Numbered from the stretch's first letter, positions 49,111 through 55,311 are shown. The stretch: 63,927 bases of DNA from Thermoplasmata archaeon (GCA_022750455.1 JAKIVR010000004.1:1-63927); one strand, 5' to 3'. The notes: a model not told the origin generated them from the sequence alone. Numbers and translations: made by a program.

Positions 49111-49671
49111 GTGGATGATCTCGACCGGTCGATCCTCGAGAGGCTCCGGGAGGACTCCCGGATCACGAATGCGAAGCTGGGGGCCTCCCTCGGCCTGACC
49201 GAAGGGGCGATTCGACACCGGCTCCTCCGCCTCCAGAAGGACCAGGTGATCCTCCGATACACGGTGATCACGCGCCCGTTGGGGCCCGGGGGACTCGTGC
49301 TGATCCGATGCCGCCCCGGAGCGACCGAAGAGGTCGTCGCCCAGCTTCGGAGCCGGGCCCGGGACCTTTTCGAGACGTCCGGGGAGTACGACCTGGCGGT
49401 GTCCCTGGACCGGGCGACGATGGAGGAGTTCAACGCGGAGCTCGACCGGATCCGTTCCTTGCCCGGAGTCCAATCGACCCTGACCTTGATCCGCCTGACC
49501 CGCTTCGTCGGCCCGGGGGGTGCTCCGCCAGCCCCCGGTGCCTCATCGACGGGGATCGAACCCACCACGGCTCCCCGTGCGCACACGATGGCCGCCGCGA
49601 CAGGCCCCCGAGGGAAGGGCGGTCGGGCCCCGGTCAGTTCCCGACGGCGTGTCCGTTCCCGAGCCGCGTGA
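49111..49671 (+). CDS. Lrp/AsnC family regulator, LysM-like
   Basis: DDLDRSILERLREDSR...LTEGAIRHR HTH; LFETSGEYDL...LDRIRSLPGVQST RAM domain. Confidence 0.88.
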   Translation: MDDLDRSILERLREDSRITNAKLGASLGLTEGAIRHRLLRLQKDQVILRYTVITRPLGPGGLVLIRCRPGATEEVVAQLRSRARDLFETSGEYDLAVSLDRATMEEFNAELDRIRSLPGVQSTLTLIRLTRFVGPGGAPPAPGASSTGIEPTTAPRAHTMAAATGPRGKGGRAPVSSRRRVRSRAA

Positions 49672-50848
49672 GTGCGAGCTCGATCTCGGGTTCGGTCCGC
49701 GTGATCGACCAACGGACGTAGTTCGCCCCGCGGCTCCCGAACGCGCTCCCGGGCGTGAGGAGAATTCCGTGACGCTGCAACACATCGTCGGCGTATTGCG
49801 CCCCGGAGCGACCGCCGACCCGCTGCCATACGTAGAGCGTCCCGCCCGGTCGGACCACCTGTTCCCCTAGGGCTTCCAGTCCCTGCACCAGCCGGTCACT
49901 GCGTCGCCGGTACTCCGCGACCCGCTCCTCGATCGCGGCCGGCCGCATCGGTCCGCGGTACATCTGCAGGCCTCGGACGGCGGCCCTCTGCAATGGGGTC
50001 GCCGCTCCCGAATCGATCTGGCTCTTCAGCCGTACGAGGGCCCCGATGACGTCGGCGTTGCCGACGGCGAATCCAAGCCGCCAGCCGGGTACACCGAACG
50101 TCTTCGAGAACGAGTGGAACTCCACACCGACCTCGCGCGCGCCGGGGATCTGCAGGAGGGACGGCGCGGGGGCACCTCCGAAGGTGATCTCCGAGTACGC
50201 GTTGTCGAAGGCGAGGGTGAAGCCCCGACTGCGGGCGGCGTCCACGGCCTCGCGAAGGACGGCGCGTTCCACCGTCTGTCCCGTCGGATTGTTCGGGTAG
50301 TTCAGGTAGGCGAGGCCGGGTCGGCCCGGCAGCGCCGACCAGTCGGGGGACCACGCCGCGGCCGGATCGAGGGCGAACCGCTCGACGCGGAGCCCGCTCA
50401 GCATCGCGGCGCCGATGTACGCCGGGTACCCGGGGTCGGGGACCGCCACCGATTCTCCGCGGTTGAGCAGCGCCCGCGGGAGCGCCGTCAGCCCTTCCTT
50501 GCTCCCGAGCAGGACCGCCACCTCATGTTCCGGGTCGACGGTCACCCCGAATCGAGTGTGCATCCAGGAGGCGATCGCTTCCCGGAGGGACGGTTCCCCT
50601 CGGGACGTTGAGTACGCGTGGATCCCCGGGGACGACACGCTCTCGCGAAGCGCGTCGAGCATCGGCGTGGGCGGGGGAAGGTCCGGGTCGCCCAGGGCGA
50701 ATCGCAGGACGGACCGTCCTTGGCGGGCCAGCGCCTCCGCTTGGGCTTCCAGCCCTGCGAACGGATACGGGGGAACGCTCGCCAAATCGGCCGATACACC
50801 GCGGAACGACGGGGTCGCGACGACGCTTCGCGGGTCGGAGATCGTCAT
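49634..50848 (-). CDS. Class I/II PLP aminotransferase, probable LL-diaminopimelate aminotransferase (DapL-like)
   Basis: LNYPNNPTG, DNAYSEI, FHSFSKTFGVPGWRLG; last gene of dap/lys operon. Confidence 0.82.
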   Translation of the reverse strand: MTISDPRSVVATPSFRGVSADLASVPPYPFAGLEAQAEALARQGRSVLRFALGDPDLPPPTPMLDALRESVSSPGIHAYSTSRGEPSLREAIASWMHTRFGVTVDPEHEVAVLLGSKEGLTALPRALLNRGESVAVPDPGYPAYIGAAMLSGLRVERFALDPAAAWSPDWSALPGRPGLAYLNYPNNPTGQTVERAVLREAVDAARSRGFTLAFDNAYSEITFGGAPAPSLLQIPGAREVGVEFHSFSKTFGVPGWRLGFAVGNADVIGALVRLKSQIDSGAATPLQRAAVRGLQMYRGPMRPAAIEERVAEYRRRSDRLVQGLEALGEQVVRPGGTLYVWQRVGGRSGAQYADDVLQRHGILLTPGSAFGSRGANYVRWSITRTEPEIELALTRLGNGHAVGN

Positions 50849-52149
50849 TCAGCGACCACCCCCATCTCACGCGCGGGCACGCTTCGGAGAAGGTCGTCGT
50901 ACGTTTCTCGGGTCCGGATCACGCGAGCTCCGCGACTTCCGACGAGCACCTCGGCCGGCCGCGGTCGGGTGTTGTACTGGCTGGCCATCGAGAACCCATA
51001 CGCCCCGGCGGTGCCGACCGCGAGGAGGTCTCCGGGTGCCAACGACGGCAACCGACGGCCCCGGCCGAGGATGTCCGTATTCTCACAGATCGGTCCGGTC
51101 AGCGTGACCGCCCGACCCGGCCCCTTCCCGTACCCGGCGACCGGGTAGATCTCGTGGTAGGCGCCGTACAGGGCCGGGCGAAGAAGCGTTTGCATTCCCG
51201 CGTCGGTCCCGACGATCGGGGGGGAGCCCTCTTTCACATGGGTCACCCGACAGATCAGGACGGTCGAATCGGCGACGAGGTACCGGCCGGGCTCGTTCCA
51301 CAGTTCGAGGCCATCGGTCGGCTCGCCCTCTCGCCGAAGCGCCGTCGTCAGGCGAGCCGCGGCGTCGTCGAGATCGAGCGGGCGCTCCGTGGACCGGTAC
51401 GGGACCCCGAGCCCGCCACCCGCGTCGGCAAACCTTGGGGTTTGGCCGGTGACGCGCCGAACGGCCCGGACCGCCTTGCCCAAGAACGCCCCCACGCGTC
51501 CGAAGTGCTCGGCCGAGAGGACGTTCGAGCCGGGCATGGTGTGGAGCCCCAGCTCGGTGATCCCGGCGGCCCGCGCCTCTCGGTAGCCCTTGAGCGCTCG
51601 TGGAAGCGACGCGCCGAATTTCGATCCGCGGCCGGCGAACCGCAACCCCTCCGGACCCGCATCGGTCCTCCCCGGATTGAGGCGGAACGACAGCGTCGTC
51701 GGGTGCCCGATCCGCAGAAGGCGCGGGAGGAGGTCCGGATCGTCGAGATTGATCGCCACGCCGGCGTCCAGGGCCCCGCCGAGCTCCTCCTCCGACGGGT
51801 AGGCTGCCGTGTACAGGATCTCGGTCGCGGGAACTCCGGCACTGCGGGCGATCCGGATCTCGGAGGGCGATGAGCAGTCCGCCCCGCACCCTTCGTCCCG
51901 GAGGAGCCGAACGATCGCCGGGTTCGAATTCGCCTTCACCGCATACAATACCCGGTGGGCGGGCCACCGGGATCGGAATGCGGTCCGGAGTCGTCGCGCA
52001 TTCGACCGGATTCGGCCCTCCGAGGTGACGTAGAGTGGGGTCCCGAAGCGTTCGGCGAGGTCCGAGAGCGACTTTCCCTCGACCGCGAGCCCGCCCTCCC
52101 GCCACCCGAATGACTCGGGGAGCGGCAACACTCCGCGGGGGGGCGTCAT
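50845..52149 (-). CDS. lysA: Diaminopimelate decarboxylase
   Basis: FGTPLYV, YAVKAN (PLP Lys), SKFG, EPGRYLV, GPICENTD, GAYGFSMASQYN. Confidence 0.94.
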   Translation of the reverse strand: MTPPRGVLPLPESFGWREGGLAVEGKSLSDLAERFGTPLYVTSEGRIRSNARRLRTAFRSRWPAHRVLYAVKANSNPAIVRLLRDEGCGADCSSPSEIRIARSAGVPATEILYTAAYPSEEELGGALDAGVAINLDDPDLLPRLLRIGHPTTLSFRLNPGRTDAGPEGLRFAGRGSKFGASLPRALKGYREARAAGITELGLHTMPGSNVLSAEHFGRVGAFLGKAVRAVRRVTGQTPRFADAGGGLGVPYRSTERPLDLDDAAARLTTALRREGEPTDGLELWNEPGRYLVADSTVLICRVTHVKEGSPPIVGTDAGMQTLLRPALYGAYHEIYPVAGYGKGPGRAVTLTGPICENTDILGRGRRLPSLAPGDLLAVGTAGAYGFSMASQYNTRPRPAEVLVGSRGARVIRTRETYDDLLRSVPAREMGVVAE

Positions 52150-54214: not shown

Positions 54215-55241
54215 AGCTCCAGCTCTGTCGTAATTCGTCCGCCGAGGCCGCCGAGCCGTGGCTTCCCAACTGCGTTCGCAAGGGCTCGAACACTCCCGGC
54301 CCGGTTCGCTCGACGTCTTCCAGGTGGCGCGCGAGCCAATCGAAACCCGCCGGGGTCAGCCGGCCGAGGGGAGGTCGGCACGGTCCAATTCCCGCGCCGA
54401 GCATGGCGAATGCGGCCTTGGTCGGCAAGGGATTCCGTACCTTCAGGTCGACCGGCCCGTGGGTCGTCTCTTCGCGAACGGGGAATGAGACCATGTTTCC
54501 CAAGGACAACAGGGTCGGGGCGAGCGAGTCGGCGAGAGCGCGGTTGCCGTCGAGTGCCGCGTGCACCGCCCGCTGGATCGCGTGGGGGGCGAGATTGGCG
54601 GAGACCGAGACGATCCCATCGGCCCGGACTTCGGGGTCGTGGATCATCGCCAACGCCCGATTGTCGTCCCCGGACAGAAGGGAGAACGGGGGGGGCAAGA
54701 GGGTCCGGACGCGTCTCGAGTAGTCCGGCTGACCGGTCGCATCCTTGACGGCGGCCAGATTGGGTGCGTCGCGGTACGCCTGGAGAAGGTCCTCGGGGAG
54801 GAGGCACGTCCCCGTCCGTGCCGGAATGACGTACGAGAGGAACTGAAGCTCGGGAAACGACTGCGCCAGAGGAACGAGGTATTCGCGCCGGATCTCCACC
54901 GAGCTCGGGGCATTGTAGGCCGGGTCGACGAGCATGACGTGGCGGACCCCCAGGTCGGCGACTCGGGCCGTCAACTCGGACGCTTCGCGGACGTCGTTCC
55001 GACCGGTGCCGGCGATCACGGTCATCGAGCCGGGGAGTCGGTCGAGGGCGCGGGCGACGAGTGCTTCGAGCTCCCCCCTCCGGAAGGTCGGGGACTCCGC
55101 CGTGGTCCCTCCGATGACGACGCCATCGATCTGGGCGGAGCGTTGGAACTCCAGGAGGGCATCGAACCGTTCCCAGTCGATCTCCCGGTGCGGCTGGAGG
55201 GGGGTCACCAGCGCGGTGTAGGCACCTCGAAGCGGGGTCAT
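54201..55241 (-). CDS. dapA: 4-hydroxy-tetrahydrodipicolinate synthase
   Basis: TALVTP, GTTAES, IAGTG, YVIPARTG, AVKDATG (Schiff-base Lys), SGDD. Confidence 0.9.
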   Translation of the reverse strand: MTPLRGAYTALVTPLQPHREIDWERFDALLEFQRSAQIDGVVIGGTTAESPTFRRGELEALVARALDRLPGSMTVIAGTGRNDVREASELTARVADLGVRHVMLVDPAYNAPSSVEIRREYLVPLAQSFPELQFLSYVIPARTGTCLLPEDLLQAYRDAPNLAAVKDATGQPDYSRRVRTLLPPPFSLLSGDDNRALAMIHDPEVRADGIVSVSANLAPHAIQRAVHAALDGNRALADSLAPTLLSLGNMVSFPVREETTHGPVDLKVRNPLPTKAAFAMLGAGIGPCRPPLGRLTPAGFDWLARHLEDVERTGPGVFEPLRTQLGSHGSAASADELRQSWSYERY

Positions 55242-55266
55242 GATGCGCGGCCGAAGTTTCGTGTCT

Positions 55267-55311
55267 TATTTAACGAATACGTTTTTCGCTACACGATTTC
55301 GATTTTAGTAG
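55267..55311 (-). promoter_or_regulatory. dapA promoter: TATA box (55267-55273) with two upstream Lrp/LysM-like boxes (55277-55291, 55297-55311)
   Basis: Minus strand reads CTACTAAAATCGAAA-n5-TAGCGAAAAACGTAT-n3-TTAAATA-n25-ATG. Confidence 0.6.

Follow-up and report, generated by a model that had tools for sequence, protein, structure and literature searches.

To our knowledge, how archaea control lysine synthesis at the level of transcription has been elucidated solely for the aminoadipate (LysW) route, with the Lrp-family proteins LysM and FL11. LysM of Saccharolobus solfataricus and Sulfolobus acidocaldarius is reportedly the subject of a 2002 study by Brinkman. Here, we describe a 63,927-nucleotide stretch from a Thermoplasmata archaeon (GCA_022750455.1, JAKIVR010000004.1:1-63927; hereafter the window), which is contig C64 of a metagenome-assembled genome (MAG) of 2.16 Mb in 129 contigs that is 92.75% complete and has a guanine-plus-cytosine (GC) content of about 67%. 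The names carried by its close homologs likewise point to Thermoplasmata. In this window, a gene for an Lrp/AsnC regulator converges on the end of an operon for the diaminopimelate (DAP) route of lysine synthesis. Comparison across the class indicates that the protein is probably a dedicated lysine-sensing regulator of this adjacent dapA-dapB-aspartate kinase-lysA-DapL operon and that it would act through two boxes directly upstream of the dapA TATA box.

LysM is likewise encoded beside lysine genes and responds to lysine, a response that is predicted here. Its semi-palindromic 15-bp site resembles the boxes of the window in having a CGA-WWW-TCG core and in lying just upstream of the transcription factor B (TFB) recognition element (BRE) and TATA box, but LysM controls the LysW/aminoadipate operon through one main site, GTTCTAAAATCGTAC at lysW, a palindromic consensus of TTCGA half-sites placed 11 bp upstream of BRE/TATA (Song 2013, PMC3597687 Table 1). 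FL11 (PH1519) of Pyrococcus sp. OT3 shares the effector-loop motif of the window protein, senses lysine, arginine and glutamine, and binds lysine-synthesis promoters as well as its own promoter; unlike the regulator proposed here, it acts globally, on about 200 transcription units, reads CGAAA/TGAAA half-sites with the contact residues L-A-E-S-T-H, and assembles into octamers with lysine as its co-repressor. Ptr2 of Methanocaldococcus jannaschii also has a pair of Lrp sites at regular spacing immediately upstream of TATA, with a consensus (GGACGA[AAA/TTT]TCGTCC) that shares the ACGA-WWW-TCGT core, and activates by recruiting the TATA-binding protein (TBP). Its targets are instead the ferredoxin and rubredoxin genes, and we know of no amino-acid effector for it. 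In general, the dimer site used by archaeal Lrp activators is a few bp upstream of BRE, additional sites being at two or three helical turns' distance, and Ptr2, LysM and Ss-LrpB, laid out in this way upstream of TATA, stimulate TBP recruitment (Peeters and Charlier review, PMC2995911). Finally, TvFL3 of Thermoplasma volcanium, one of the feast/famine regulatory proteins (FFRPs), from the same class as the window genome, is listed with lysine as its effector (PMC2995911 Table 1), and its contact residues, N-S-E-G-T-R, accompany an optimum of TACGA[AAT/ATT]TCGTA in SELEX (Yokoyama 2009, PMC2715240). The literature that we searched names neither a physiological target of TvFL3 nor any Lrp protein that controls a DAP operon in archaea. 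The kind of switch described below is familiar and its mechanism is not new; what differs is the pathway under control.

The two boxes lie in a 50-bp island upstream of dapA with 32% GC, compared with 61% in the stretch just upstream. The initial annotation of the window had picked out two similar 15-mers, 20 bp apart and directly upstream of the dapA TATA box, and both their coordinates and their sequences are exact. The 13-bp boxes that they contain are separated by 7 bp, with centers 20 bp apart, and the proximal box ends 4 bp before TATA, so that it abuts or overlaps the BRE position; the spacing from TATA to ATG suggests a leaderless dapA transcript. Taken alone the pair would be weak, as the 15-mers are identical to each other at 8/15 positions only. 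The same arrangement recurs, however, across the class. Our sample comprised 251 Thermoplasmata genomes, whose families include those labelled here f1 (that of the window genome), f6, f10, f16, f17, f20, f26 and f27. Orthologs of dapA were found in 21 of these genomes, with the two-box layout ahead of essentially all of them; this layout stands before dapA in about 23 genomes belonging to six or more families (f1, f10, f16, f17, f26 and f27). The order is box (13 bp), 7 bp, box (13 bp), about 4 bp, TATA, about 25 nt and ATG, with a center spacing of 20 bp, exact or almost exact, and a TATA-like element at the same place (examples in Table 1). The intergenic DNA around the boxes is not alignable between families. 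The footprinting of dapA upstream regions that had been suggested as a check thus supports the boxes, and the consensus of about 40 of them, TACGAWWWTCGTA, equals in silico the SELEX optimum of TvFL3.

An independent matrix, built solely from boxes of families other than f1 and scanned over the whole window genome, ranks the distal box 1-2 and the proximal box 5-6, and the two form the single 20-bp-spaced pair genome-wide. The perfect palindrome occurs once each in G106 and G171, in both cases at dapA; G044 has two copies, one of which is at dapA. A search of five genomes with one mismatch allowed gave counts not clearly above those of a reversed-pattern control, and in that search perfect sites alone are informative. 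Because the tandem layout is found in about 23 genomes and is the sole such pair in the window genome under a matrix derived from elsewhere, we consider the observation to be beyond chance.

The regulator that would read these boxes can be sought in its DNA-contact residues. In FFRPs, residues 24, 34, 35, 36, 37 and 39 relate to the five bases of a half-site, and those of LysM (Y24-S34-E35-A36-A37-R39) read TTCGA (PMC2715240). The window protein has N-T-E-G-A-R, and its clade N-(T/S)-E-G-A-R; E35, A37 and R39 are common to LysM and the remainder differ, so that the contact set is not of the LysM type. With G36, an A is expected at base b, which gives the half-site TACGA as in TvFL3, and the window regulator is accordingly predicted to read TACGA half-sites. 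The window genome holds just two further full-length Lrp paralogs, and these carry V-A-R-V-T-Q and H-S-P-T-T-G, without the CGA-reading Glu35 and Arg39. Orthologs in f20 have contact residues identical to those of TvFL3. By published contact residues and SELEX optimum, then, the nearest characterized relative in DNA specificity is TvFL3 and not LysM. The initial annotation had compared box 1, the distal box, with a 17-mer given as the LysM operator. That 17-mer is essentially right: its core is the published lysW site, its flanking G and C fit the guanine-interference positions of Song et al. (PMC3597687), and the 17-mer with both flanks retrieved the Saccharolobus locus lysY-lysZ-lysM-lysW-lysX. 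Box 1 matches the lysW operator 15-mer at 11/15 positions.

Gene order also links the regulator to the operon. Orthologs of the Lrp protein (E 1e-23 to 1e-52) adjoin dapA in at least five families and in three arrangements: divergent from dapA in families f16, f17, f26 and f27 (G094, G192, G133, G190, G171, G191, G164, G228, G045 and G044), in tandem with it in G106, and convergent at the operon end in the window genome (G000), G005 and G016. Among the 21 sampled genomes with dapA, a regulator ortholog was found in 20. Within f1, dapA is present in 4 and the regulator in 3 of the 29 sampled genomes, and in this sample the two come and go together, so that most members of f1 may be auxotrophic for lysine or rely on a route outside our search. 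On these comparisons the pairing of Lrp and dapA is real and conserved class-wide. In four genomes of genus g3 (G014, G024, G009 and G019; L032-L035), where the regulator gene is not beside dapA, TACGAAAATCGCT stands between a TATA-like element and the regulator's own GTG start, about 11-23 nt before the start. Negative autoregulation classically acts from this position, as in LrpA (PMC2995911), and the element is likely an autorepression site. At the regulator's own promoter in G000, G005 and G016 the box is absent, and the matrix scan of the window genome gave no hit near it. A scan of 48900-55700 against Rfam detected tRNA-Val only and no riboswitch or other known RNA family. Gene linkage, the contact code, the g3 site and this Rfam result are our reasons for assigning the boxes to the neighboring Lrp protein.

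The protein itself is a full-length member of the Lrp/AsnC family (PF13404 45.7 bits, PF01037 31.8 bits, both over cut-offs), with a helix-turn-helix at residues 1-47, a RAM domain at residues 63-133 and a low-complexity tail of about 50 residues. It had been annotated as LysM-like. The LysM model NF040947 is its best NCBIfam match by a wide margin, but the score of 70.9 bits compares with a cut-off of 180, and a paralog on another contig of the same genome (C104) scores higher, at 81.8. The best PDB match is FL11/PH1519 (60 bits, E 1.7e-15), with the next structure at 37 bits. Identity to Saccharolobus LysM is 28%, and best hits between the two are not reciprocal. In a maximum-likelihood tree of 84 Lrp domains over about 137 columns, with references picked by similarity to the query and thus biased toward it, a 34-member clade (98/80) unites the window's group (100/99) with the dapA-linked proteins of f10, f16, f17, f26 and f27 and with f6 proteins. 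The TvFL3-like proteins of f20 form a separate group and LysM another. All three lie inside a 72-member clade (100/93) that excludes the other paralogs of the window genome and of Saccharolobus, including Ss-Lrp; sister relations within it are weakly resolved, and little more is expected from about 137 columns. The phylogeny that had been proposed as a check upholds kinship with LysM, and a fair summary is that LysM, TvFL3 and the window protein are members of one subfamily, in which the window protein is not a LysM equivalog and comes nearest to TvFL3 in DNA specificity.

Effector residues point the same way. In LysM, positions 97 and 121, which FL11 has in common with it, form bonds to the side chain of lysine and determine specificity (Song 2013, PMC3597687). 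Glu88 and Asp112 of the window protein align with them, and with FL11 98 and 122, and their equivalents are kept throughout the dapA-linked clade; the other paralogs of the window genome have Asp at the first contact position and lack the second contact residue. Because FL11 is the best solved relative and LysM the best NCBIfam model, the Glu and Asp contacts are conserved, and the listed effector of TvFL3 is lysine, lysine is the most likely effector of the window protein. The Discussion of PMC3597687 prints "glutamine" for LysM position 97; the Saccharolobus LysM open reading frame (ORF; L052:863-1291, minus strand) has Glu97 and Asp121, and FL11 has Glu98.

Sequence and comparison establish the genes, the spacing and conservation of the boxes, the linkage across families, and the DNA-contact and effector residues; from them we propose a model in which binding, the lysine effector and the sign of regulation are predicted. 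Lrp dimers, probably within a higher oligomer, would bind the two TACGAWWWTCGTA-type boxes. When lysine is scarce, bound Lrp would aid recruitment of TBP and TFB and turn the operon on, following the logic of LysM and Ptr2; lysine in the RAM-domain pocket would weaken or remodel binding, and expression would drop. The proximal box and the 20-bp center spacing reproduce the upstream activating layout of Ptr2 and LysM, with activation itself predicted, and by this analogy we prefer activation at low lysine, relieved by lysine, at about even confidence. Some observations weigh against the proposed switch. The window boxes are imperfect (TACTA-AAA-TCGAA and AGCGA-AAA-ACGTA, with TACTA as the left half-site in box 1 and ACGTA as the right one in box 2). 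The regulator is unlinked to dapA in f10, although boxes and regulator are both present there, and it occurs in f6 and f20, where dapA was not found. This last distribution indicates that the subfamily has further targets; the ORFs chosen beside the f6 orthologs gave no Pfam matches. Finally, a proximal box that reaches the BRE position could equally mean competition with TFB and hence repression. The same regulator and boxes might then act with the opposite sign, lysine-bound octamers covering the boxes and BRE/TATA as in FL11-like co-repression, and the apo protein being no activator. FL11 is the best structural relative and has lysine as its co-repressor (PMC2995911), and the g3 box just downstream of TATA at the regulator's promoter is in a repressor position like that of LrpA. 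Yet both dapA boxes lie entirely upstream of TATA in all of the approximately 23 promoters, which is the position of the activators Ptr2, LysM and Ss-LrpB, and the interval from TATA to the dapA start is free of boxes; we regard co-repression as unlikely, if still a serious contender.

Other readings concern the identity of the regulator, its ligand or its relation to the boxes. The initial annotation had inferred that a LysM circuit was rewired onto the other lysine pathway, which would make the protein a strict LysM ortholog moved from a lysW aminoadipate operon to a DAP operon. The common 100/93 clade without other paralogs, the shared lysine-contact residues and the likeness of box 1 to the lysW operator agree with this, as does an ortholog in f20: in G136 and G176 (about 31-33% GC), a lysW-lysY-lysZ-lysJ-lysX-lysK cluster has it at the 3' end or close by, and two TACGA-type boxes, TACGAATTTAATA and TACATAATTCGTA, stand exactly 20 bp apart and some 165 bp upstream of lysW. 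A Saccharolobus LysW query found no LysW in the window genome, so DAP is the sole lysine route seen there, and the neighbor of the regulator is the DAP operon rather than lysWXJK. Rewiring is only partly supported: the DAP link extends over five or more families and is therefore old rather than a recent local event; together with the NF040947 scores, the lack of a reciprocal best hit and the weak branching within the 72-member clade, this makes strict orthology quite unlikely. That the operators are real but answer to arginine, glutamine, aspartate or a pathway intermediate is very doubtful: promiscuity is a trait of Lrp proteins, arginine and glutamine likewise elicit responses from LysM and FL11 (PMC3597687), and the pocket motif differs slightly (ETSGEYD compared with ETTGDYD), but the specificity-setting Glu and Asp persist all through the dapA-linked clade, the target is a lysine operon, and lysine is the listed effector of TvFL3. 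Least probable by far is that another factor binds the boxes, or that they are generic AT-rich promoter DNA, and that the Lrp gene is unrelated to the operon. Binding by Lrp is predicted, and the island is AT-rich against both its upstream flank and the genome as a whole; on the other hand, CG dinucleotides keep the same positions and are phased at exactly 20 bp, the consensus is the SELEX optimum of a relative, the linkage takes three arrangements, and the other paralogs lack the CGA-reading residues.

A dedicated lysine-sensing regulator of the DAP operon therefore stays our preferred reading, and the f20 case invites a broader one. The TACGAWWWTCGTA-type 20-bp tandem module is found at DAP operons (f1, f10, f16, f17, f26 and f27) and at the lysW-Y-Z-J-X-K cluster of f20 genus g36. 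Because G136 and G176 are close relatives and AT-rich, their lysW boxes are suggestive only; they fit one sensor/operator grammar serving either pathway. We tentatively propose, at slightly short of even confidence, that a LysM/TvFL3-like lysine-sensing Lrp subfamily has been attached repeatedly to two unrelated archaeal lysine pathways, with sensor and TACGAWWWTCGTA tandem-box grammar as the conserved unit and the pathway interchangeable. The locus and its relatives offer a concrete predicted operator-regulator pair for the DAP route across an archaeal class, and an example of a sensor/operator module that would serve non-homologous pathways. They also suggest a role for the lysine-binding, SELEX-characterized TvFL3, which, if true, would give this orphan a physiological function. 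As a simple regulon marker, the locus could help to predict which Thermoplasmata MAGs are prototrophic for lysine.

Table 1. Features of the lysine locus in the window, and boxes cited from related genomes.
Feature	Coordinates	Strand	Remarks
TATA-like element TGTATATC	49080-49087	+	24 nt before the Lrp GTG; predicted leaderless promoter
Lrp/AsnC (FFRP) regulator, 186 aa	49111-49671	+	PF13404, PF13412, PF01037
DapL-like class I/II aminotransferase	49634-50848	-	Last gene of operon; PF00155; TIGR03540 and NF006756 (LL-DAP aminotransferase) 351-352 bits, under cut-offs
lysA, diaminopimelate decarboxylase	50845-52149	-	TIGR01048 355 bits, cut-off 297.9
Aspartate-kinase-like gene	52146 to ~53402 (start uncertain)	-	PF00696; aspartate kinase models ~155 bits, under cut-offs
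dapB	53339-54214	-	PF01113, PF05173; TIGR00036 86 bits, under cut-off
dapA	54201-55241	-	First gene of operon; PF00701; TIGR00674 151 bits, under cut-off
dapA TATA box TTAAATAA	55266-55273	-	First base 32 nt before dapA ATG; 24 nt between its end and ATG
Proximal 15-mer TAGCGAAAAACGTAT	55291-55277	-	Read from sequence
Proximal box (box 2), 13 bp, AGCGAAAAACGTA	55278-55290	-	
Distal 15-mer CTACTAAAATCGAAA	55311-55297	-	Read from sequence
Distal box (box 1), 13 bp, TACTAAAATCGAA	55298-55310	-	
tRNA-Val(CAC)	55497-55570	+	186 bp upstream of distal box, opposite strand; bounds dapA control region
Box pair TACGAAAATCGTA / GCCGTAAATCGTC			G005, same genus as window genome
Box pair TACGAATATCGTA / TACGAAATACGTC			G106
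Box pair TACGATTATCGTA / TATGTTAATCGTA			G192
Box pair TACGATTATCGTA / TACTAACATCGTA			G044
Box pair TACGAATATCGTA / TACGAATAACTTT			G171
Boxes of G136 (L127)	4346-4378		lys cluster 4530-10405
Boxes of G176 (L135)	15515-15547		

In the gene set on which the regulator converges, annotated earlier as dapA-dapB-lysC-lysA-aminotransferase, Pfam and NCBIfam models bear out dapA, dapB and lysA; the third gene is aspartate-kinase-like, and the last is a class I/II aminotransferase for which LL-DAP aminotransferase is the best model (scores and curated cut-offs in Table 1). The Lrp gene overlaps the 3' end of the aminotransferase gene by 38 nt. Junctions within the set overlap by 4-14 nt where starts are clear, and we therefore treat it as one operon. 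Of the DapL variant of the pathway (dapA, dapB, dapL, dapF, lysA), dapA, dapB, lysA and a DapL-like aminotransferase are present in the window genome. The DapL product, LL-DAP, requires epimerization before LysA acts. DAP epimerase (PF01678, dapF) was not found in the whole of this 92.75%-complete genome; dapF may be missing from the assembly, or a different enzyme may take its place. The aspartate-kinase-like protein has the kinase domain alone at E<=0.001, with no ACT domain detected at that threshold. Since an ACT domain is not recognizable, allosteric feedback by lysine may be weak or absent, which would leave transcription as the main control. The last ~140 residues of the same protein are rich in proline and arginine.

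The C-terminal tail of the Lrp protein was considered as a possible functional element and ruled out. Encoded at 49510-49671, where it overlaps the convergent aminotransferase gene, it is low-complexity and absent or different among orthologs: the conserved part of these proteins ends near residues 133-147, their lengths range over 153-195 residues with variable tail sequence, and a 99%-identical metagenome copy has 179 residues and a differing tail.

Finally, a regulon search in the window genome did not find a second convincing target. An exact second copy of TACTAAAATCGAA (C43:25376-25388) lies inside a 737-residue ORF in a 47% GC stretch, has no partner and is probably there by chance, and matrix matches on C92 and C4 were set aside for their coding or unclear contexts. 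A high-scoring site on another contig, TTCTAAAAACGTA (C48:4215-4245, with the hit at C48:4227), falls within a GTATT...AATAC palindrome beside a TATA-like element and is probably an operator for NikR and not for Lrp. It lies upstream of a NicO nickel transporter gene, and a NikR-like gene is next.

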